DNA from: Bacteroidales bacterium
GTDB taxonomy: Bacteria > Bacteroidota > Bacteroidia > Bacteroidales > JAAYJT01
Assembly (NCBI GenBank): GCA_012522795.1
Contig: JAAYJT010000029.1
Coordinates: 67,525-131,524 of the forward strand
DNA: 64,000 bases
Direction of reading: 5' to 3'
Numbering within the stretch: the stretch's first letter is position 1; each line of letters starts with the position of its first letter. Both the position numbers and the translations under genes were made by a program. The notes beneath the pieces are model-generated. The model made no database searches. It was given only the letters and a program-made list of their open reading frames with translations, and was not told where the DNA came from. This document shows positions 2,230-38,567 of this stretch, piece after piece.

Positions 2230-4206
2230 CTATTCTTTTTTGGCTCTCAGCGATTCCCAGATCAGATAGGAACAGATAACAATAAACATCACAAGAGCAA
2301 GTATTTCAGCGCCATTTGATTCAAACCATTCTTTATTAACAAAATTAATTCCAAAAAAGTTAAGAAGCGCACTTATCACTCCCATCAAAGCTCCTCCGGC
2401 AATGAAGCCAGAAGCTATAAGCGTACCTCTTTCTTTTCTTGCACTGTTAAGTTTTTCGTCTTTACTGCGGGTGCTTACAAACCATGCTATTATTCCACCC
2501 ATTAACAATGGAGTATTCAGTTGCAGCGGTATGAACATTCCCAATGCAAAAGCCAGAGCAGGAACACCAATCATAGTGAGTATCAGCGACAAAAATGCTC
2601 CTGAAAGATAAAGCAGCCAGGGTGCGGGTTTACCTGACATCATTGGTTCAATAACGGCTGCCATCGCATTTGCCTGAGGTGCTACAAGTGCATTTTCACC
2701 CACAAATCCGTATGTCTTGTTTAGCAATATAATTACTCCACCCACTGTAAGAGCCGAAACAAAAGTTCCAAGGAATTTCCAGGTTTGCTGTTTGTAAGGT
2801 GATGAGCCAAGCCAGTAACCTATTTTCAGGTCAGTGATAAAACCACCAGCCATAGCCAGAGAAGTACATACAACGCCACCAATTATCAGCGCAGCAACCA
2901 TACCCGCTTCACCTGATAAGCCTACTGAAGCCATGATCAGGGAAGTGATTATCAAAGTCATGAGAGTCATGCCTGAAACAGGATTGGTACCAACAATTGC
3001 TATTGCATTGGCTGCAACGGTTGTAAATAAAAATGCAATAATCATTACAATAGCAAGAGCAATGAGGGCATGTACCAAATTGAAAACAACACCAGCCCAA
3101 AAGAAAATGAATATAATTATAGTTAAAATTATCAGTCCGAAAAGAATAATATTCATAGGAATATCGCGACGGGTTCTCAGTTCAACACTTCCTTCGGTTT
3201 TACGGCTGAAAGTTTCTTTAATAGCCAGCCCAACTGCATTTTTAATGATACCTGATGATTTTAATATCCCGATTATTCCTGCCATTGCTATTCCACCTAT
3301 ACCAATCTGTCTGACATAGGCTGTAAATATTTCTTCAGCTGACATATCACCAATCAACATGGTAATATTGGCGCCAACCGGAAGCGTAATACCTGCGGCA
3401 AAATAATTGATCAAAGGTATCAGTACATACCAGCCTACAAACGAACCGGCACAGATTATAGCAGCATATTTCAAACCTATTATATAACCCAATCCCATTA
3501 CTGCAGCACCCACATTTATCTTGAAAACCACTTTGGCTTTATCGGCTAACATAGCTCCAAAACTGAACACCCTTGTAGTAAAGACTTCATTCCACCAGCC
3601 AAAAGTTGCAATAATGAAATCGTAAATACCGCCTATTAAGCCACTAATCAGCAATAATTTAGCAGAACTCCCACCCTTCTCGCCCGAGATAAGAACTTCA
3701 GTAGTTGCTGTAGCTTCAGGGAACGGGAATTTGCCATGCATATCGCTGACAAAATACTTTCGAAACGGGATCAATAATAAAATGCCAAGGAAGCCACCAA
3801 GCAATGATGAAAGAAATATCTGATAAAAATGAGCTTCAAGGTTCAGAATATAAAGGGCCGGAAGTGTAAAAATAGCACCGGCAACAATAAGTCCTGAACT
3901 TGCACCAATAGATTGAATAATTACATTCTCACCCAGAGCATTCTTGCGTTTTGTTAATGATGATAATCCAACTGCAATAATGGCTATTGGAATAGCAGCT
4001 TCAAAAACCTGACCTATTTTTAATCCAAGATAAGCTGCAGCAGCCGAAAAAATTATAGCCATTAATAAACCCAGAAGTACTGAGCGAAGGTTAACTTCCG
4101 GATAAACTTTAAAAGGCGATAATACCGGAATATATTCCTCTCCTGGCTTTAATTCGCGATAAGCATTCTCTGGAAGTTCTTTCAAGTCTTTGTTTACATC
4201 AGTCAT
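2230..4206 (-). CDS. OPT-family oligopeptide transporter
   Basis: 658-aa polytopic membrane protein. The N-terminus (ELKPGEEYIPVLSP) and the glycine-rich TM pattern are typical of OPT transporters. It sits next to pepT. Confidence 0.8.
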   Translation of the reverse strand: MTDVNKDLKELPENAYRELKPGEEYIPVLSPFKVYPEVNLRSVLLGLLMAIIFSAAAAYLGLKIGQVFEAAIPIAIIAVGLSSLTKRKNALGENVIIQSIGASSGLIVAGAIFTLPALYILNLEAHFYQIFLSSLLGGFLGILLLIPFRKYFVSDMHGKFPFPEATATTEVLISGEKGGSSAKLLLISGLIGGIYDFIIATFGWWNEVFTTRVFSFGAMLADKAKVVFKINVGAAVMGLGYIIGLKYAAIICAGSFVGWYVLIPLINYFAAGITLPVGANITMLIGDMSAEEIFTAYVRQIGIGGIAMAGIIGILKSSGIIKNAVGLAIKETFSRKTEGSVELRTRRDIPMNIILFGLIILTIIIFIFFWAGVVFNLVHALIALAIVMIIAFLFTTVAANAIAIVGTNPVSGMTLMTLIITSLIMASVGLSGEAGMVAALIIGGVVCTSLAMAGGFITDLKIGYWLGSSPYKQQTWKFLGTFVSALTVGGVIILLNKTYGFVGENALVAPQANAMAAVIEPMMSGKPAPWLLYLSGAFLSLILTMIGVPALAFALGMFIPLQLNTPLLMGGIIAWFVSTRSKDEKLNSARKERGTLIASGFIAGGALMGVISALLNFFGINFVNKEWFESNGAEILALVMFIVICSYLIWESLRAKKE

Positions 4207-4346
4207 GGAAGTAAAGGTTTAAAATTTAGCTGCCAAAGATAATAATACAATTGGGATAGATAATAGAAAACTAAAAATGAGTTTTCAGAAAATTCAGTTT
4301 TTCCATACTACAAAACTTTAAAAACATATCCTTTCAGGATTATTCG

Positions 4347-4354
4347 TATTTTTG
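4347..4354 (+). promoter_or_regulatory. Candidate Bacteroidota -7 promoter box (TATTTTTG) for bfr
   Basis: Matches TAnnTTTG, 44 nt upstream of the ATG at 4398. Confidence 0.35.
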
Positions 4355-4397
4355 CAAGTCAGATAATTAACATAAATTAAATAACAAACTAATAATT

Positions 4398-4898
4398 ATG
4401 AAAAATCGTGAAAAAAGCATTGAATTGCTAAACAAGGCTGTAGCCGATGAGTTAACTGCTGTACATCAGTATATGTATTTTCATTTTCATTGCGATGACC
4501 AGGGTTATGACCTGCTTGCCAACCTTTTTAAAAGAACTGCAATTGAAGAAATGGTGCACGTAGAAGATCTTGCTGAACGTATTCTTTTCCTCAAAGGTGA
4601 AGTAGAAATGGTGGTAGGCAGTCCAACAAAAAAGATTCATGATGTAAGGGAAATGCTCAAATTAGCCGGCGAAATGGAAGAAGCCAGTGCAAGAGATTAC
4701 AATGAATGGGCAAATATTTGTGCACAGAACGCCGATTCAGTTTCCAAAAAACTTTTTGAATCTCTGGTGGCTGATGAAGAACGTCATTTTGACCAGTTTG
4801 ATGTAGAAATGGATAATCTGAAGAAATTCGGTGATCATTATCTTGCTCTGCAATCCATTGAACGCAGTAAAATAGTAGGACAAAAATCTGATATATAA
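4398..4898 (+). CDS. bfr: Bacterioferritin / ferritin-like di-iron protein
   Basis: ELTAVHQYMYFHF...EEMVHVEDLAERILFLKG pattern (di-iron ligands and heme-Met context). 166 aa. Confidence 0.8.
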   Translation: MKNREKSIELLNKAVADELTAVHQYMYFHFHCDDQGYDLLANLFKRTAIEEMVHVEDLAERILFLKGEVEMVVGSPTKKIHDVREMLKLAGEMEEASARDYNEWANICAQNADSVSKKLFESLVADEERHFDQFDVEMDNLKKFGDHYLALQSIERSKIVGQKSDI

Positions 4899-4932
4899 CC
4901 AAATCAGACAACTCCTTTTATCGGAACTTATT

Positions 4933-4997: not shown

Positions 4998-6653
4998 ATG
5001 AACAAAAAAAGGAATAAGAAAAAATCAGAAAAGCGCAGTATCATACACATACTGCAATGCATGGTTAAAGACCGTACACTGCAAATACTGATTGCCATTT
5101 TGCTGATCACCGCACTGATCTACGCCCGAAGTTACAATCAAACTTTTTTGTTTGGCTGGGACGATGGTGAGTATATTACTAATCCTGATATCAAAGATCT
5201 TTCGATTACCAATATCGGTAAATATTTCAGTTCGTTTTATCTGGGTATGTATCAGCCCATTCCGGTACTGACTTTTTCACTGAATATTTATTTAGGCGGA
5301 GAAAATCCTGTAGGTTTTCATTTATTCAGTCTTTTAATCCATTTTATAAATATTTTACTGGTTTTCAATCTGGTTAAAAAGCTTAGCGGCAGCAACCCGG
5401 CAGCTATATTAGCAGCCTTGCTGCTAGCAGTACACCCAATGAATGTGGAAAGCATCAGCTGGCTTTCGGCACGTAGCACCGGTTTATTCTCAATGTTTTA
5501 TCTGCTTTCATTAACAGCTTATCTGAAATATATTCGCGAAGGGTTAAAAACCACACAATTACTATTAGTGCTGACGTTTTTCATAACAGCGCTGTTTTGC
5601 AAATCAATGGCAGCTACGTTACCAATGGTGCTGGTAGTTCTTGATTTTTGGGAAAAACGCAAGGTGAATAAAAAAATGATATTTGAGAAAATCCCGTTTT
5701 TTGCATTATCTATAATATTCGGACTTATCTCGATACGAGCTGCAGCAAGTTTTGGTCATATCACCGTACTCGAAGCTGATTACACACTTATTGACAGGCT
5801 GTTCCTGCTCAGTTACGGTGCAGCATTTTACTTAGTAAAGTTTTTTATTCCTGTAAACCTTTCGGCAATATACGCTTACCCTGATAAAACCGCAGGATGG
5901 TTGCCGGCAGAATATTATCTCAGCCTACTGCTAATATTGTTACTGGCTATCGGGGCTTACAGATTGAAACGCTACCGCCGCGAAACATTGCTGGGAGTGC
6001 TTTTCTTTTTGCTAAGTATCTCAATGGTGTTACCATTATTCTGGTCGCGATTGTTCATTGTTGCTGAGCGTTATGTTTACCTGCCCTACGTCGGGCTGTT
6101 TTGTATCGGAGGCATTTGGTTCAACGCATTGCTAAAAAATGAAATTAAAATCAGAACCTCCACCCGGACATGGATTCTGGGTGTGATTTCAGTATGGATA
6201 TTGGTATTTGGTATTTCTTCTTTTGTCAGAACCAGTGTTTGGCGTGATACACGAAGCCTGATGGAAGATGTGATTGACAAAAAGCGCTCTCTAGCCGATC
6301 AGGCTTTTGCATGGTTCTTTATGGGAAATATCAGCGACCGGGAAGGTAATAACCAACAGGCTATAAAGAATTACAGCCTTGCCATAAACATGAATCCCAG
6401 GCATATTCAGGCTCTTAACAACCGTGGTATAATGCTGGGCATTGAAGGCGATTTTCAGGGTAGCCTGAATGATTTTAATGAGGCTATACATTTAAAACCC
6501 GATTTTGCCGAAGCTTTTTACAATCGTGGAATAGTATATTATAGGCTAAACAGACAGGAAGATGCCTGCAAAGACTGGCAACAGGCTGCATACTTAGGGT
6601 TCGGACAAACCAAAGAAGTGCTGAACAATTATTGTAATAAATCCGGACAATAA
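4998..6653 (+). CDS. Polytopic membrane protein with C-terminal TPR repeats (TMTC/PMT-like glycosyltransferase-fold candidate)
   Basis: About 10 hydrophobic helices, then TPR-like repeats (AIKNYSLAINMNPRHIQALNNRG, AEAFYNRGIVYYRL). Confidence 0.6.
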   Translation: MNKKRNKKKSEKRSIIHILQCMVKDRTLQILIAILLITALIYARSYNQTFLFGWDDGEYITNPDIKDLSITNIGKYFSSFYLGMYQPIPVLTFSLNIYLGGENPVGFHLFSLLIHFINILLVFNLVKKLSGSNPAAILAALLLAVHPMNVESISWLSARSTGLFSMFYLLSLTAYLKYIREGLKTTQLLLVLTFFITALFCKSMAATLPMVLVVLDFWEKRKVNKKMIFEKIPFFALSIIFGLISIRAAASFGHITVLEADYTLIDRLFLLSYGAAFYLVKFFIPVNLSAIYAYPDKTAGWLPAEYYLSLLLILLLAIGAYRLKRYRRETLLGVLFFLLSISMVLPLFWSRLFIVAERYVYLPYVGLFCIGGIWFNALLKNEIKIRTSTRTWILGVISVWILVFGISSFVRTSVWRDTRSLMEDVIDKKRSLADQAFAWFFMGNISDREGNNQQAIKNYSLAINMNPRHIQALNNRGIMLGIEGDFQGSLNDFNEAIHLKPDFAEAFYNRGIVYYRLNRQEDACKDWQQAAYLGFGQTKEVLNNYCNKSGQ

Positions 6654-6691
6654 TATCTGTTTGCTTCATTACAACCGCAATTCAGAACATT

Positions 6692-7795
6692 ATGCTACAA
6701 AATATAAAACGTCCCACACTTTTACTCGATCGTGCCAAATGTCTATCAAACATCAGATTAATGGCTGAAAAAGCCAAAAAACACAACCTTATCTTCAGAC
6801 CTCATTTCAAAACCCATCAATCGGCTGCTATCGGCGAATGGTTCAGAAATGAGGGTGTGGAAGCAATTACTGTTTCATCAGTGCAAATGGCTCAATATTT
6901 CGCTTTACACGGCTGGCAGGACATCACAATTTCATTTCCGGTAAATATCCGTGAAATTTCAGAAATTAACCAGCTTGTGGCTCAGATTCATTTGAATCTT
7001 CTGGTAGAGTCGCCTGAAGTTGTTCATTTTCTGAAACACAATCTCACCTCATCAGCAGGTATCTTTATTAAAATTGATACCGGCCTGCATCGCAGTGGCA
7101 TTGATCCGGCTGATCTGATTATGATTGAGAAGATTATTGAAGCAATTCAGCAGTCGGACAAGATGATATTTCGCGGATTTCTGACCCATGCCGGGCATAC
7201 TTATGGTTCAAAAAACAAGAATGATATTCTTATCATACACCGGCAATCTCTTGATCAGATGGCAGGATTAAAGAATGCTTTTTCAGAATTTCAGCCTTTG
7301 ATATCAATTGGCGATACGCCTTCATGCAGTATTGCAGATGATTTTTCAGGTGCGGATGAGATCCGTCCCGGAAATTTTGCCTTTTACGATATGATGCAGG
7401 CTGAAGCAGGAAGCTGTACACCCGGGCAGATTGCTGTTGCACTTATCTGCCCTGTAGTTGCAAGCTATCCAAAGCGCTCGGAACATGTTATTTATGGCGG
7501 AGCTATACATTTGAGCAAGGATTCAATCCGGTATTCCAACGGTTTGGCAAGTTTCGGACGTATAGCCATATTCAACGGAAACCATTGGCAAATCCTTCCC
7601 GAAGGCAATGAGGTGATCTCGGTTTCACAGGAACATGGAATTGTAAAACTACAGCAGGAATTTTATGACAGTTTCATTCCCGGAGGTTTAATGGCTGTAA
7701 TACCCATTCACTCCTGCCTCACAGCGCATCTGATAAAACAGTATCTTACCCTTGACGGTGAATTCATCAGCATGATGTTATCAAACAATAATTGA
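6692..7795 (+). CDS. PLP-dependent D-threonine aldolase / D-serine dehydratase-like enzyme (alanine-racemase N-terminal fold)
   Basis: RPHFKTHQS (PLP-lysine context) and overall length and pattern of the DSD1/D-TA family. TGA stop at 7793-7795. Confidence 0.7.
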   Translation: MLQNIKRPTLLLDRAKCLSNIRLMAEKAKKHNLIFRPHFKTHQSAAIGEWFRNEGVEAITVSSVQMAQYFALHGWQDITISFPVNIREISEINQLVAQIHLNLLVESPEVVHFLKHNLTSSAGIFIKIDTGLHRSGIDPADLIMIEKIIEAIQQSDKMIFRGFLTHAGHTYGSKNKNDILIIHRQSLDQMAGLKNAFSEFQPLISIGDTPSCSIADDFSGADEIRPGNFAFYDMMQAEAGSCTPGQIAVALICPVVASYPKRSEHVIYGGAIHLSKDSIRYSNGLASFGRIAIFNGNHWQILPEGNEVISVSQEHGIVKLQQEFYDSFIPGGLMAVIPIHSCLTAHLIKQYLTLDGEFISMMLSNNN

Positions 7796-8216
7796 ATGAA
7801 ATTCGCAGAGCATTAAAAGTCAAATTTTTCTCATTTTTATTTGTCCTTTCTTGCTCAAACATCCTATCTGACTAATATTCAGGTAGCTTAAAATTATAAC
7901 GATTGTAATTTACAAAACAGTTTGGACTATTTTGTAAATATAAATCGCATAGTAGGTGAGTAACAGAAATCACCCTCACCTATCCAAAAGCATTGAATAA
8001 AGTCTTTTTGATGACTTATAAATAAATTCTTGTATTTTTGTAAAAACATAGAAGCAAGCAAAACCTTGTGTCTATAAACACCTACATGTTGCATAAGCCA
8101 AGGTTTTGTTGGACTATTAGTAAATTAGAGGCAATGGTGAAAATTTTCCAACACTCGAAGCCAAACAAAAAAATGAATTACTTTAAAACTTTAAAAAATT
8201 ACAACAATAAGACAGA

Positions 8217-8769
8217 ATGATATTTTGGAACAACGATACTGAAATACAATTTTTCACAGAGGCATTAAAGAATTTTGTCTCGCCCGAACAACTATTTTAC
8301 AATTTGAAAAGTGGGTATTTTGCCTATGTCCCCAAAGGTTCAGATGCAGAAGGTCAAACTTTGCAAAGTAGAAATTCGCTCATTGGACAATTTACTGAAA
8401 AATGGAGTAAAACGCTTTTTGAGCCCATTGCAAAAGAATTAGGACTATTCGCAGTAAACAGTGTTGTATGTGATGAACTTGGGCTTTCAAGACAGTCAAG
8501 TGCCGACCTTGCATTATGCACAACAAACAATACCGTTCAAAAACCTGAAAACATAAAGCTACTGTTTGAAATCAAAATGAGTGTCGTTTCCAACTACAAA
8601 GTACACATACCCAAACAATGTTGAATATGTTGGAGATTACAAACAACATAAGGGAAATCCAGCTTTATTACGTTCCGACTCAATGCTTAAAGCAATAGGT
8701 AAGTCAATCAATATTCGTGTTTCGGGCATTGCTTCAACAATTCTAAATTCAATAAAACAAGTAGCATAA
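8217..8769 (+). pseudogene. PD-(D/E)XK-like nuclease, apparently frameshifted (8217-8624 continues in the +1 frame as 8581-8769)
   Basis: Two overlapping ORFs in different frames. The second frame opens right after a TGA at 8578-8580. The upstream part carries SADLAL...LLFEIKMS (D ... ExK, about 23 aa apart). Confidence 0.5.
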
Positions 8770-8966
8770 TGGGAACAAAATCTTTTGAAATTAAAATTTA
8801 TTATACAGGATTTTGCACTTATGAAATTGAAGCGCAAGATAAAGCAGAAGCAATTATAAAAGCACGAAATCTTCCTATAATTCAAAATGAAGTTATAAGT
8901 AATTTAGAAAATTGGGGAGATGCTGATACTGCAATAGAAATTAAAAATGAAGAAGACAAAATCTGA
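8769..8966 (+). CDS. Small hypothetical protein (65 aa), translationally coupled
   Basis: TAATG overlap with the preceding ORF and a 20-nt overlap with the next one. No recognisable motif. Confidence 0.4.
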   Translation: MGTKSFEIKIYYTGFCTYEIEAQDKAEAIIKARNLPIIQNEVISNLENWGDADTAIEIKNEEDKI

Positions 8967-9780
8967 ACTACCACTAAATTACATAACTGTAAAGACTACA
9001 AAAAGCCGTATTGATAAAGGCTTATTGGCTATCCCTGTTTCATTAATTGAATTATTTCCCAAAACTGGAAATAAAATATTTTTAGTCAATGAAAAAGGAA
9101 ACACTGAAGTTAAATCTTTTACACCATACAATAGTAGTAGCCGTGAATGTAGAATTGGAGGATTAAGATCATTTTACAATTTCTATAAAATTTCAGATGG
9201 AGATGAATTAGTTATTCAATTGCTTGATGATAAGAAATTTAGAATAATACCTGAGAAATTATTTAAAGATATTCTGAGCATCAATATATTTGAATTTGAA
9301 AATTCGACTGATGATAATGAAACTGACAATCTTTTATCTAAAATTTCTGAGATCACCAATCTATCAAGAAATGACTTTCTAAAAAATGAATATATTTTGC
9401 TTTCAAATAAAGAAATAGAACATAGAAAAAAAATAGAAAAAAGCACAACCTTTGTAAGAGAGAGTGTTCCTATTTCAATTCGTAAGATTTTACTTGAGTT
9501 ATACAAAGGGAAATGTCAAATTACAAACTTTACATTCTTAACAAAAAACGGTAGTCCTTATTTTGAATTGCATCACATTGACCAAGAAAAAGGAAATCAC
9601 TTTAAAAACTTGCTTGTCGTCAGTCCAAATACACACGCTCAATTTACTTATGCAAATCTTGAACAAAATTTTGATAACGAAGGTTGGTTAAGAAAAGTAA
9701 AATTCAACCAAAATGAATATACTGTGTTTCAAATAATTGACAATTTGCCTAAAGAATTTGAAAAAGAAATACATTTTTAG
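8947..9780 (+). CDS. HNH endonuclease with N-terminal AbrB/B3-like barrel DNA-binding domain
   Basis: The C-terminus FELHHIDQEKGNHFKNLLVVSPNTHAQF fits HH..N..N..H. The N-terminus (LAIPVSLIELFP...KIFLVNEKG...FYKISDGDELVI) resembles swapped-hairpin/pseudobarrel domains. TAG stop at 9778-9780. Confidence 0.6.
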   Translation: MKKTKSELPLNYITVKTTKSRIDKGLLAIPVSLIELFPKTGNKIFLVNEKGNTEVKSFTPYNSSSRECRIGGLRSFYNFYKISDGDELVIQLLDDKKFRIIPEKLFKDILSINIFEFENSTDDNETDNLLSKISEITNLSRNDFLKNEYILLSNKEIEHRKKIEKSTTFVRESVPISIRKILLELYKGKCQITNFTFLTKNGSPYFELHHIDQEKGNHFKNLLVVSPNTHAQFTYANLEQNFDNEGWLRKVKFNQNEYTVFQIIDNLPKEFEKEIHF

Positions 9781-9792
9781 TGGGCAGAGAAT

Positions 9793-10527
9793 ATGAAAGA
9801 GTTGCCTGACAATTCTGTTCACTTAATGATTACTTCGCCACCTTACAATGTTTCGAAAGAATATGACGAAGATTTATCACTAAAAGAGCATTTACAACTT
9901 TTAGAAAACTCATTTAAAGAAACATACAGAGTTTTAGTGAACGGTGGACGGGCTTGTATAAATGTAGCCAACCTTTGAAGAAAACCATACATACCAATTT
10001 CTGACTATATTTCCAAAATGATGATAGAAATTGGTTTTAATATGCGTGGAGAAATTATTTGGAATAAGGCAGCAAGTGCAAGTCCATCAACAGCTTGGGG
10101 TAGTTGGCAAAGTGCAGCGAACCCAATTTTAAGAGACATACACGAATATATTTTGGTTTTCTCAAAAGGCGACTATAAAAGGGAAAAAGGAAAAAAAGAA
10201 AATTCCATAACCAAAGAACAGTTTATGGAATGGACAAAATCAATATGGACAATGAACGCAGAAAGTGCAAGAAGAATTGGACACCCTGCACCATTTCCAG
10301 AAGAACTACCTTACAGACTAATTCAACTTTATTCGTTTAAAGGAGACATAATCCTTGACCCTTTTTTGGGAAGCGGAACAACGGCAGTTTCGGCACTTAA
10401 ATCCGAAAGAAAATTTGTAGGATACGACATTTCGCAAGAATATATTGACTTAGCAGAAAGGAGATTAAAACCATTTTTAAAACAGACAAGTCTAAAGTTT
10501 ACGAAAGTTGAAATTGACGAAGAATAA
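9793..10527 (+). pseudogene. Beta-class (SPPY ... FLGSGTT) N4-C/N6-A DNA methyltransferase interrupted by an in-frame TGA at 9976-9978
   Basis: LMITSPPYNV (motif IV) lies N-terminal to ILDPFLGSGTTAV (motif I). ORFs 9793-9978 and 10018-10527 are in the same frame, and codons 9979-10017 (RKPYIPISDYISK) are open. Confidence 0.8.
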
Positions 10528-10878
10528 AACCACTGTCTATAATAATAAGGGCTTAAACTCAATGCATTTTACGGAGTTGCGTTTTAAGTTCCGAAATCTG
10601 TCAGAATTGATCTGAGGCTTCGGCATTGGCAACCAGCAGACAGAATTGCTACCTTCCGTACTGCTATAAGCCCCGACATGTTAGAACAGCACAAAATGTT
10701 TTACGACTTTCATAAAAGAGCTGAACGGCCTTAAGGCCAAATTGATTGCTTTACGAGACCGAAAGTGCAACGCATAATTGAATCGCAGAATTCCCCGCTG
10801 TTTCAATTTTTATTAATCAGCGTTTAAACCAAATTGCTATATTCTGCGTTACATTGTTAAAATTAACATTTATTGATT

Positions 10879-15829: not shown

Positions 15830-16201
15830 GGGGCTGACCGGTTTTGACAGCAAGGAAGTGGTATTGTAAGCATGCCGGGTGTTGTGTGTTTACCCGTTAA
15901 CAACAATGCATACGCCAGAATAAATGGCAACAATTACAATTTCTCGTTAGCTGCTTAATCAAGAAGATTAAGTCGCTTTCTGTTTCCCGCAAAACCTCTC
16001 CAAACGGTGTTGTGGATGAAGCATCGAAAAAGTTTGGATAGAAAAAGTTTTGTTCCGGAGCTTTTTTGAAATAACAGGAACTAAGGATGAAGTAGGTTTG
16101 CCTTTCACTGGCTTTCATCCCTACAAAATATGAAAGGCTAAGCATGTAGAAAGCATTATTGCTGCTTGTTTGGACGAGGGTTCGACTCCCTCCAGCTCCA
16201 C
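15830..16201 (+). ncRNA. ssrA: tmRNA (transfer-messenger RNA)
   Basis: The 5' end GGGGCTGACCGGTTTTGACAGC pairs with the 3' end ...GGACGAGGGTTCGACTCCCTCCAGCTCCAC (T-arm plus acceptor). The internal tag frame reads ...GGC AAC AAT TAC AAT TTC TCG TTA GCT GCT TAA (15926-15958), i.e. GNNYNFSLAA-stop. Confidence 0.9.
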
Positions 16202-16238
16202 TAAAAACAATTAACCGGCTAAAAGTCCCTCCTGCGGC

Positions 16239-38377: not shown

Positions 38378-38485
38378 ATTAATACTGTGTTGAGATATTC
38401 AAAAAATTAAATTGATGTGAATTTTAAAAGCAATAATGCCCGGAATTAAAAAAAATTGAGATGTTGTTTGCTTTTGGTTTGTTTG

Positions 38486-38567
38486 TGCGGACGAAGGGAC
38501 TCGAACCCCCACGCCTTTCGGCACCAGATCCTAAGTCTGGCGCGGCTACCAATTACGCCACGTCCGC
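38486..38567 (-). tRNA. tRNA-Leu (anticodon TAG)
   Basis: The reverse complement reads GCGGACG...CCAGA-CTTAGGA-TCTGG...long variable arm...GGTTCGAGTCC...CGTCCGCA. The cloverleaf folds by eye and CCA is not encoded. Confidence 0.9.

Follow-up and report, generated by a model that had tools for sequence, protein, structure and literature searches.

A B3-HNH nuclease gene that stays intact while the type II restriction–modification genes around it decay

A four-gene locus with damaged restriction and modification genes

The window analysed here is a 64,000-nucleotide (nt) stretch of a Bacteroidales contig (JAAYJT010000029.1). It contains a four-gene locus in which an intact gene for a nuclease of the HNH type lies between the remains of a type II restriction–modification (R–M) pair, and an intact HNH gene beside a dead methylase proves to be the rule for the family to which that gene belongs. 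The original prediction, made from the letters of the window, had treated the four genes as one nuclease/methylase operon. Its coordinates for the open reading frames (ORFs), the TAATG junction at 8767–8771, the 20-nt overlap of genes 2 and 3 at 8947–8966 and the 12-nt gap between genes 3 and 4 at 9781–9792 all hold on rechecking. The four genes lie on the same strand (+), and the features of the locus are as follows.

8164–10535: horizontally spread unit (R–M pair with the insert), richer in A+T than the flanking host DNA
8217–8769, + strand: gene 1, read as 8217–8624 and then 8581–8769; pseudogene of a restriction endonuclease (R), 286 amino acids (aa) when intact, PD-(D/E)XK-like
8601, + strand: one extra G, causing a +1 shift in the R frame; AAA-TAC in 7 of 7 relatives, AAAGTAC in the window
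8733–8737, + strand: junction of an in-frame deletion in R, with TTCAA microhomology; about 108 codons lost, roughly codons 176–283
8769–8966, + strand: gene 2, conserved acidic protein of 65 aa, pI 4.4; first gene of the insert
8947–9780, + strand: gene 3, intact and uninterrupted B3-HNH nuclease gene, 277 aa
8947–9252, + strand: B3-fold domain of gene 3 (residues 1–102), of the EcoRII-N/BfiI-C/LlaJI.R1-N type by Foldseek
9514–9636, + strand: HNH core of gene 3, CQIT ... ELHHID ... KNLLVV-SPNTH, with the catalytic H/N/H kept
9745–9777, + strand: C-terminal tail of gene 3, LPKEFEKEIHF, its DNA resembling codons ~46–58 of the full-length methylase
9793–10527, + strand: gene 4, pseudogene of a beta-class N4/N6 DNA methyltransferase (M); usual form 306 aa
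9976–9978, + strand: premature stop TGA in M in place of GGA (Gly); the codon is GGN in 14 of 14 relatives and Gly in PDB 2zie

By sequence, gene 1 is the R and gene 4 the M of a two-gene type II R–M system that is very common. Gene 1 is 88–89% identical to intact 286-aa R proteins encoded directly upstream of M in two-gene loci, and gene 4 is 93–95% identical to the 306-aa methylases of such loci. In Thermospira aquatica and many metagenome contigs, R is followed by a PF01555 methyltransferase of 295–313 aa with stop and start codons abutting; loci L016–L021, L070–L071 and L074–L075 likewise encode a 286-aa R and then directly an M of 295–313 aa, and R lies immediately 5′ of M in every two-gene locus checked. 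The R family comprises more than 2,500 proteins and the M family at least 7,977 homologues. The view of the four genes as a single architecture that matches no named system was misleading: a common two-gene R–M system carries a separable two-gene insert at its junction.

Gene 4 matches PF01555 (N6_N4_Mtase) with E = 5e-48 over model positions 1–220 of 221, in agreement with its earlier assignment as a beta-class SPPY methyltransferase. It contains the SPPY motif at 9835–9846 and S-adenosylmethionine (AdoMet) motif I, DPFLGSGTT, at 10357–10383, and long-form M proteins match PADLOC MTase_II (PDLC03350) over their full length (E = 5e-128). We take the SPPY motif to suggest N4-cytosine methylation. 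The D...ExK arrangement noticed earlier in gene 1 corresponds to the putative catalytic residues D97 (8505–8507) and E118 and K120 (8568–8576), which are invariant within the R family. This invariance agrees with a PD-(D/E)XK nuclease without proving it; R has no match in Pfam, NCBIfam, PADLOC or PDB, even with a profile query, and its AlphaFold model, built from a shallow alignment, has a predicted local distance difference test (pLDDT) score of 50, too poor for a structure search.

R and M in the window are both broken, as originally predicted, and more thoroughly than was then noticed. The frameshift in R is a single extra G at 8601, at a site where all relatives encode SNYK|YTYP, and the N-terminal frame now stops 147 nt before the ATG of gene 2. 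The deletion of about 108 codons, which had been overlooked and which was mapped by alignment to L013, L019, L017 and L016, takes out many invariant residues; after it, the frame still reaches the TAATG overlap with gene 2. In M, the TGA recognized earlier does interrupt the frame and replaces a glycine codon. Also overlooked was the loss of the N-terminus: M in the window starts at an internal methionine, so that the initial ~62 codons found in the usual 306-aa form are missing. The ratio of nonsynonymous to synonymous substitution rates (dN/dS) of window R and M against relatives is still ~0.03–0.06, so their inactivation is recent.

One explanation is that these lesions are artefacts, or are bypassed by reading TGA as Gly or Trp and by a programmed +1 frameshift, such that the R–M system is intact. 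We regard this as extremely improbable. Beyond being possible a priori, it can point to the TGA falling on a Gly position; but a 3,078-nt island spanning the locus is 100% identical in eight other contigs (apart from a single mismatch in one locus), which come from ENA, NCBI, JGI and Logan assemblies of several different samples made with different assemblers. Because the lesions are identical in independent assemblies, they are the organism's own, and the suggestion of assembly error raised in the original prediction is refuted. Recoding, raised there too, fares no better. The GGA-to-TGA change is unique to the lineage of the window, and long ORFs nearby read normally in translation table 11, which together with the R deletion rules out an alternative genetic code; because that deletion removes ~108 codons with many invariant residues, neither recoding nor frameshifting would rescue R.

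The R–M part of the window is thus an ordinary decaying acquired island. The unit at 8164–10535 has a G+C content of 31.5%, against 38.4% for the rest of the window, and falls in the lowest 1% of windows of the same size, in line with the AT-richness previously judged by eye. Its DNA homology to R–M loci of other phyla runs from ~50 nt 5′ of the R start codon to a few nucleotides past the M stop. The host lineage of the island consists of Bacteroidales metagenome-assembled genomes (MAGs) from anaerobic digesters. An Rfam search of the island gave no match, and scans of it for promoters and terminators gave nothing above chance.

The B3-HNH protein and the insert that carries it

The original prediction had described gene 3 as an uninterrupted frame encoding a barrel domain followed by HH..N..H, and both elements are borne out. 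Its AlphaFold model (pLDDT 93) consists of a B3 barrel, three linker helices, a beta-beta-alpha HNH core (strands 196–198 and 207–210, helix 227–235) and a small C-terminal sheet. In Foldseek searches of the PDB, the B3 domain matched the N-terminal domain of LlaJI.R1, plant B3 domains and the C-terminal domain of BfiI with probability 1.0 and E values down to 2.7e-4; target template-modelling scores (TM-scores) were 0.5–0.69 to 6c5d, 7et6, 5os9 and 1yel. The Pfam B3 match (E = 1.8e-4) is below the curated cut-off. In the HNH core, H209, H210, N221, N228 and H230 are invariant in 43 gene 3 sequences. The closest PDB sequence is the HNH domain of EcoKMcrA (E = 0.04, weak), a weak match to PADLOC mREase_IV was obtained as well (E = 0.009), and full-length relatives at 30–45% identity exceed the gathering score of Pfam HNH (PF01844). 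We found 545 homologues, nearly all 276–281 aa long; the family forms 505 clusters at 50% identity (E ≤ 1e-3) and spans more than 10 phyla and one archaeon. R–M-embedded B3-HNH nucleases are therefore a widespread family, and neither the family nor a B3-HNH fusion was found described in the paper library that was searched.

Genes 2 and 3 together form an insert of ~1.1 kb that replaces ~170 nt at the R/M junction, namely the last few R codons and M codons 1 to ~45–62. The intact four-gene locus L072 encodes an R of 315 aa, a gene 2 product of 65 aa, a gene 3 product of 277 aa and an M of 251 aa; the two-gene locus L074 encodes a methylase with 98% identity to that of L072, and homology between the two breaks at R codon ~281 and at M codon ~44–50. 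The insert is present in many unrelated variants of the R–M backbone. M in the window differs by 5.5% from two-gene methylases and by 8.3% from the nearest other insert-bearing methylase; the corresponding values are 3.5% and 7.1% for L011, and 2% and 4.7% for P0332. Mosaicism is seen between L033 and L072, which share a ~420-nt tract (L072 ~1700–2118, covering the end of R, gene 2 and ~90 nt at the start of gene 3) at 92–100% identity. Outside this tract the remaining gene 3 is 45–75% identical, and the remaining gene 3, R and M together are 45–85% identical; the synonymous divergence (dS) between the two loci is 0.03 in gene 2 and 1.67 in gene 3. This polyphyly and mosaicism indicate that recombination within the conserved R and M sequences on either side carries the insert from one R–M backbone to another.

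The right edge of the insert is fuzzy, because the DNA of the gene 3 tail resembles methylase codons ~46–58. Alignments (blastn) of two-gene methylases extend into the tail DNA, and the tail is conserved in every gene 3 copy, solitary ones included. The resemblance of the last ~40 nt of gene 3 to the methylase is suggestive at best. Homology of the gene 3 tail or N-terminus to the N-terminal extension of the methylase was considered and is unsupported at the profile level (hhalign E = 0.6).

Gene 2 has no family match in Pfam, NCBIfam or PADLOC searches. By profile search it accompanies every R remnant and occurs nowhere else, and solitary gene 3 loci are without it; a role as an obligate antitoxin or immunity partner of gene 3 was rejected on account of its absence from solitary loci. 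Between the R tail and gene 2, the loci L072 (1763–1833, − strand), L009, L011 and L033 contain a G+C-rich element of ~80–100 nt that is not present in the window. It scores 25.9 bits (E = 0.019) against the Rfam Flavo-1 RNA (RF01705), below the gathering score of 42, and is translated through as a C-terminal extension of R. In L069, an ORF of 104 aa without family assignment (2690–3004) separates an intact 286-aa R from a full-length 306-aa M; its position indicates that the R/M junction accepts other inserts too.

Persistence of gene 3 and erosion of its neighbours

To describe the state of gene 3 and its neighbours across the family, we used a survey with one genome per species, which contains 45 loci with clear gene 3 relatives. 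They span more than 10 phyla and one Thermoplasmata MAG; two further matches were weak and partial. Gene 3 is complete in 38 of the 45 species-level loci, broken in four and cut by contig ends in three. Among the 38 species with intact gene 3, R is complete in three and M in three (a fourth M is cut by the contig end), and both are complete in two; the R–M pair is thus not intact in 36. Thirteen of the intact copies have no detectable remnant of R, gene 2 or M. The converse also occurs: gene 3 is intact beside complete R and M in L013/L030, L028 and L072, and loci with a complete R, gene 3 and an M of 244–251 aa are found in three phyla and in abundant metagenome populations.

The sequence comparisons show that purifying selection keeps gene 3 whether or not R, M and gene 2 survive. 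The dN/dS of gene 3 is 0.13–0.33, including pairs in which both R and M are broken, and it is ~0.15, with dS up to 0.33, among three Cloacimonadota species (L034, L038 and L040) that carry a syntenic solitary gene 3. In these three, gene 3 is followed by what appear to be the last ~20 codons of M (FEISEEYIKIAENRI versus GYDISQEYIDLAERRL); this tail of M in the same position argues for vertical inheritance after complete loss of the R–M pair. Solitary gene 3 is also found on complete chromosomes (OY763426.1 and OY729416.1), and OY729423.1 carries intact gene 3 beside a truncated M.

Since the gene 3 product coexists with complete R and M, and also persists without M, it would be harmless to host DNA with or without M methylation. 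We infer that gene 3 is not the methylation-sensitive restriction partner of M; its co-occurrence with an intact cognate methylase is far from obligate (3 of 38). Of the explanations that the original prediction had offered for an intact nuclease beside a dead methylase, the one in which the HNH protein is not a classical partner is supported by these comparative data. Protection from elsewhere in the genome is unlikely as a general answer, given that 36 of the 38 species are without an intact adjacent pair and that the 64-kb window holds no second methylase with a (D/N/S)PP(Y/F/W) motif. In sum, the earlier recognition of a dead methylase, a dead PD-(D/E)XK nuclease and an intact HNH gene stands, and the treatment of all four genes as one system does not.

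The losses around gene 3 follow a pattern. Truncated M copies keep their 3′ end, and the remnant begins −35 to +41 nt from the gene 3 stop in all 21 loci with a truncated M, at an M residue that varies from 65 to 263. Truncated R copies keep their 5′ end and have lost the part proximal to gene 2. The alignments show R and M eroding by nested deletions anchored at the ends of the insert, with gene 3 finally left alone. On the gene 3 tree these deletion states are spread over separate branches, so they arose independently. The frameshift, deletion and nonsense codon of the window are typical of the pseudogenization of an AT-rich acquired island; what differs from ordinary type II R–M decay is the repetition of nested deletions anchored on a preserved internal insert.

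On the R side, the damaged gene is a fragment that forms one open frame from its start and stops −16 to +8 nt from the ATG of gene 2 in 10 of 15 loci. Because they are usually open to the gene 2 start codon, truncated R fragments may act as a translated leader, and selection would keep genes 2 and 3 translationally coupled to the R promoter and leader. The anchoring on the M side is explained only in part: in many remnants a start codon lies close to the gene 3 stop and the frame is free of internal stops, features that chance and recent origin could produce. Testing for function of truncated M by dN/dS was uninformative, because insert-bearing methylases are polyphyletic and most of their divergence dates from the two-gene state. 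The M remnants of L033, L025, L042, L032 and L055 converge on a start at codons 144–150. Shared ancestry of these endpoints was rejected, the loci lying in different gene 3 clades. The motif AATATG is found at the M start and again at codon ~143, and slippage between these repeats seems the likelier cause. In the related cassettes L009 and L011, the M start codon, which closely follows the gene 3 stop, has changed from ATG to ATA, which is another route to silencing of M.

A second B3-HNH subfamily, 30–45% identical to that of the window and retaining its zinc ligands, was collected by scanning soil and peat metagenomes with an eight-sequence alignment (80 loci, L076–L155). Its gene is full-length in almost all 80 loci and adjoins restriction genes of the GIY-YIG Eco29kI family (PF09517, E = 1.7e-63) and fragments of N6_N4 methylases. 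In L081, for example, the features lie at 4306–4911, 5001–5867 and 6264–6758. None of the 80 loci contains an ORF with both methylase motifs, and the Eco29kI-type nuclease remnants lack the part proximal to the B3-HNH gene, in either orientation. These gene neighbourhoods place B3-HNH genes at the R/M junction in at least two unrelated kinds of type II system, and in both the B3-HNH gene outlasts the R–M genes.

Possible functions of the B3-HNH nuclease

These observations suggest, as our preferred though still tentative reading, that gene 3 encodes a stand-alone defence nuclease that spares its host, with a logic like that of type IV restriction. The B3 barrel would select the DNA target and the McrA-like HNH domain would cut it, the attack being directed at a feature of foreign DNA that is absent from the host, for example a modified base. 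The gene would travel inside an R–M operon, transcribed from the R promoter, and would stay useful once the short-lived R–M system has decayed; the window would represent an intermediate stage of that decay. We favour this reading because of the McrA-type HNH domain, the reader–linker–HNH build, the selection on solitary, vertically inherited copies and the lack of phage, plasmid or viral relatives: none was found in phage, plasmid and IMG/VR collections, and Foldseek searches against viral models gave nothing significant. As in type IV enzymes, a reader and a nuclease are joined in a single polypeptide that is kept without a cognate methylase.

A close parallel in build is EcoKMcrA (PDB 6ghc), a single gene encoding an N-terminal reader, a linker and a C-terminal McrA-type HNH domain (PY.E.HH ... 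N ... H). ScoMcrA, TagI and VcaM4I are further modification-dependent restriction enzymes composed of a reader plus HNH. With enzymes of this kind gene 3 shares its independence of a cognate methylase, its patchy distribution and its best PDB and PADLOC sequence matches. It differs from the EcoKMcrA type in that its reader is a B3 pseudobarrel rather than an SRA, PUA, EVE or McrA-N domain, in having lost three of four zinc ligands, and in having been born in, and still lying mostly inside, a type II R–M operon; its modification dependence is putative. The fold of the B3 domain is, by Foldseek, that of EcoRII-N, BfiI-C (3zi5, 2c1l) and LlaJI.R1-N (6c5d). BfiI, which consists of a B3-like recognition domain and a nuclease domain, also resembles gene 3 in its modular separation of the two. 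In the EcoRII, BfiI and LlaJI enzymes, the B3-like domains have PD-(D/E)XK, phospholipase-D or McrB-type modules as their partners, whereas that of gene 3 is joined to HNH, and those enzymes depend on cognate methylases, whereas gene 3 persists without one.

Several observations weigh against a type IV-like function. The known B3-like domains found in restriction enzymes (EcoRII-N, BfiI-C, LlaJI.R1-N) recognize unmodified sites, and B3 is not among the reader folds known to bind modified bases; the Foldseek matches of gene 3 include no SRA, PUA, EVE or YTH fold, the top ones all being B3. The window protein has no match to Pfam HNH at E ≤ 1, and its subfamily lacks three of the four zinc-ligand cysteines (CQIT at 9514–9525, SPNTH at 9622–9636), which distant relatives and McrA retain as CxxC ... 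CxxCH. Were the nuclease simply compatible with M, more intact M genes would be expected than the 3 of 38 and 0 of 80 found in the two subfamilies. The type IV-like model does not explain why M deletions are anchored at the gene 3 stop, and a polyphyletic, mosaic insert also fits a selfish mobile cassette.

That last possibility is the main rival. Genes 2 and 3 could be a homing-type selfish cassette specialized on R–M operon junctions: the B3-HNH protein would cut or nick insert-free R–M alleles or conserved methylase-gene DNA, repair templated by a copy with the insert would spread the cassette through the R and M flanks, and residual nicking at half-sites beside the insert would produce the outward nested deletions. 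This accounts better than the type IV-like reading for the single defined site between two highly conserved genes with its presence/absence polymorphism, for insert-bearing methylases scattered among insert-free ones (P0332 and L011 above), for the recombination mosaic of L033 and L072, with its ~420-nt near-identical tract and contrasting dS values, and for deletions anchored at both ends, which arose independently in many lineages and recur in the second subfamily whatever the orientation of the flanks. A different B3-HNH subfamily is paired with a different R–M type, and the phylogeny of the flanks is incongruent with the presence of the insert. T-even phages carry free-standing HNH and GIY-YIG homing genes. 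There is also a precedent in the ShiLan domain, an HNH homing element that resides in the DNA methylase gene of a phage (PMC11855218). As in those phage cases, an HNH gene sits at a constant position within or beside a methylase gene, is disjoint in close relatives and spreads through flanking homology; unlike them, gene 3 is chromosomal, has a B3 domain, truncates the methylase instead of sparing it and is under selection when solitary. Against homing stand precisely the solitary, vertically inherited copies that have no target left and yet evolve under purifying selection (the Cloacimonadota above), and the 38 of 45 copies that are intact, where a purely selfish homing gene should decay after fixation. 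Nor were relatives found in the phage, plasmid and IMG/VR collections, and the ~170-nt replacement truncates the methylase and would expose the host to the surviving restriction enzyme. On balance we consider homing doubtful, though the strongest competitor. A broader proposal would make B3-HNH genes hyperparasites of R–M systems, which home into the R/M junctions of selfish type II operons of at least two unrelated R–M families, break the operon through nuclease-provoked outward deletions and are then kept, or domesticated, as solitary nucleases; this too we put forward as a speculation that is rather unlikely to be right in full.

A conflict of the DpnI/DpnII kind appears less probable still. 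Here the B3-HNH protein would cut M-methylated DNA, forcing the loss of M and hence of R. The near absence of intact M beside intact gene 3 in both subfamilies would follow, as would the removal of the M N-terminus by the insert and of the M start by deletions and by the ATG-to-ATA changes of L009 and L011; the B3-HNH subfamily co-varies with R–M type, and the HNH domain is McrA-like. The model is weakened because, to our knowledge, no B3 domain reads a methylated base. It is also at odds with loci that hold a complete R, gene 3 and an M of 244–251 aa, where an active M breaks the model and an inactive one would make R lethal, and arrival in a fully methylated genome would be self-destructive. 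The DpnI cassette consists of a methylase-independent nuclease and a small gene, and is swapped with a classical R–M system by homologous recombination. In Streptococcus pneumoniae, the methyl-dependent DpnI and methyl-sensitive DpnII cassettes are alternatives at one locus (PMC3812788). The likeness to our family lies in a methylase-independent nuclease cassette (nuclease plus small gene) and a classical R–M system that share a locus; the difference is that here the R and M genes themselves are the homology arms and the insert is inside the operon, and that methyl-dependence of gene 3 is putative. Finally, gene 3 could be a conventional methylation-sensitive, type IIS-like enzyme (B3 plus HNH) protected by a methylase of the same specificity elsewhere in the genome. 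Its domain build parallels that of BfiI, with a fold match to support the parallel, and the methylase family is so widespread that second copies are conceivable. We nevertheless judge this very unlikely: 36 of 38 species lack an intact R–M pair next to the gene, no R–M remnant is detectable around 13 of the intact copies, the window contains no other (D/N/S)PP(Y/F/W) methylase, and a copy in trans would be needed in every lineage.

Whichever of these applies, finding the nuclease intact and the neighbouring methylase dead is not a local accident, since this is how the loci of a widespread family normally look. The family is born inside type II R–M operons and outlives them, with a reproducible and directional erosion of the operon around it. 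Anchored nested deletions, together with frames kept up to the next start codon, provide a natural series of operon dismantling around one selected gene, and they bear on how orphan nucleases and R–M pseudogenes are annotated in metagenomes. If the type IV-like reading is right, B3 would be a new reader fold for modification-dependent restriction, and there would be a natural case of type II and type IV defence in one operon. A homing-type element would be a parasite of R–M systems that might serve as a tool, its specificity being long or unusual, and hyperparasitism would mean that mobile defence genes conflict at a further, new level and that there is a new kind of site-specific mobile element, one that targets operons.

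Some minor observations concern the surroundings of the cassettes. GmrSD_N-domain proteins are encoded near those of L013 (1751–2752) and L097 (5732–6853), and a complete EcoO109I-type R–M system with a helix-turn-helix (HTH) gene lies near that of L009 (6875–8453); such neighbours are defence-island settings. In L041 (68–901), intact gene 3 is accompanied by a methylase remnant on a contig assigned to a Thermoplasmata archaeon MAG. In the window, an imperfect 17-nt direct repeat (14 of 17 positions, 82%) brackets the four genes at 8202–8218 and 10630–10646; it could reflect a target duplication of the inserted island and is probably due to chance. A transfer-messenger RNA (tmRNA) gene with the tag peptide GNNYNFSLAA (15830–16203) lies ~5 kb downstream of the island, and a tRNA-Leu gene lies at 38485–38567; neither is adjacent to it.

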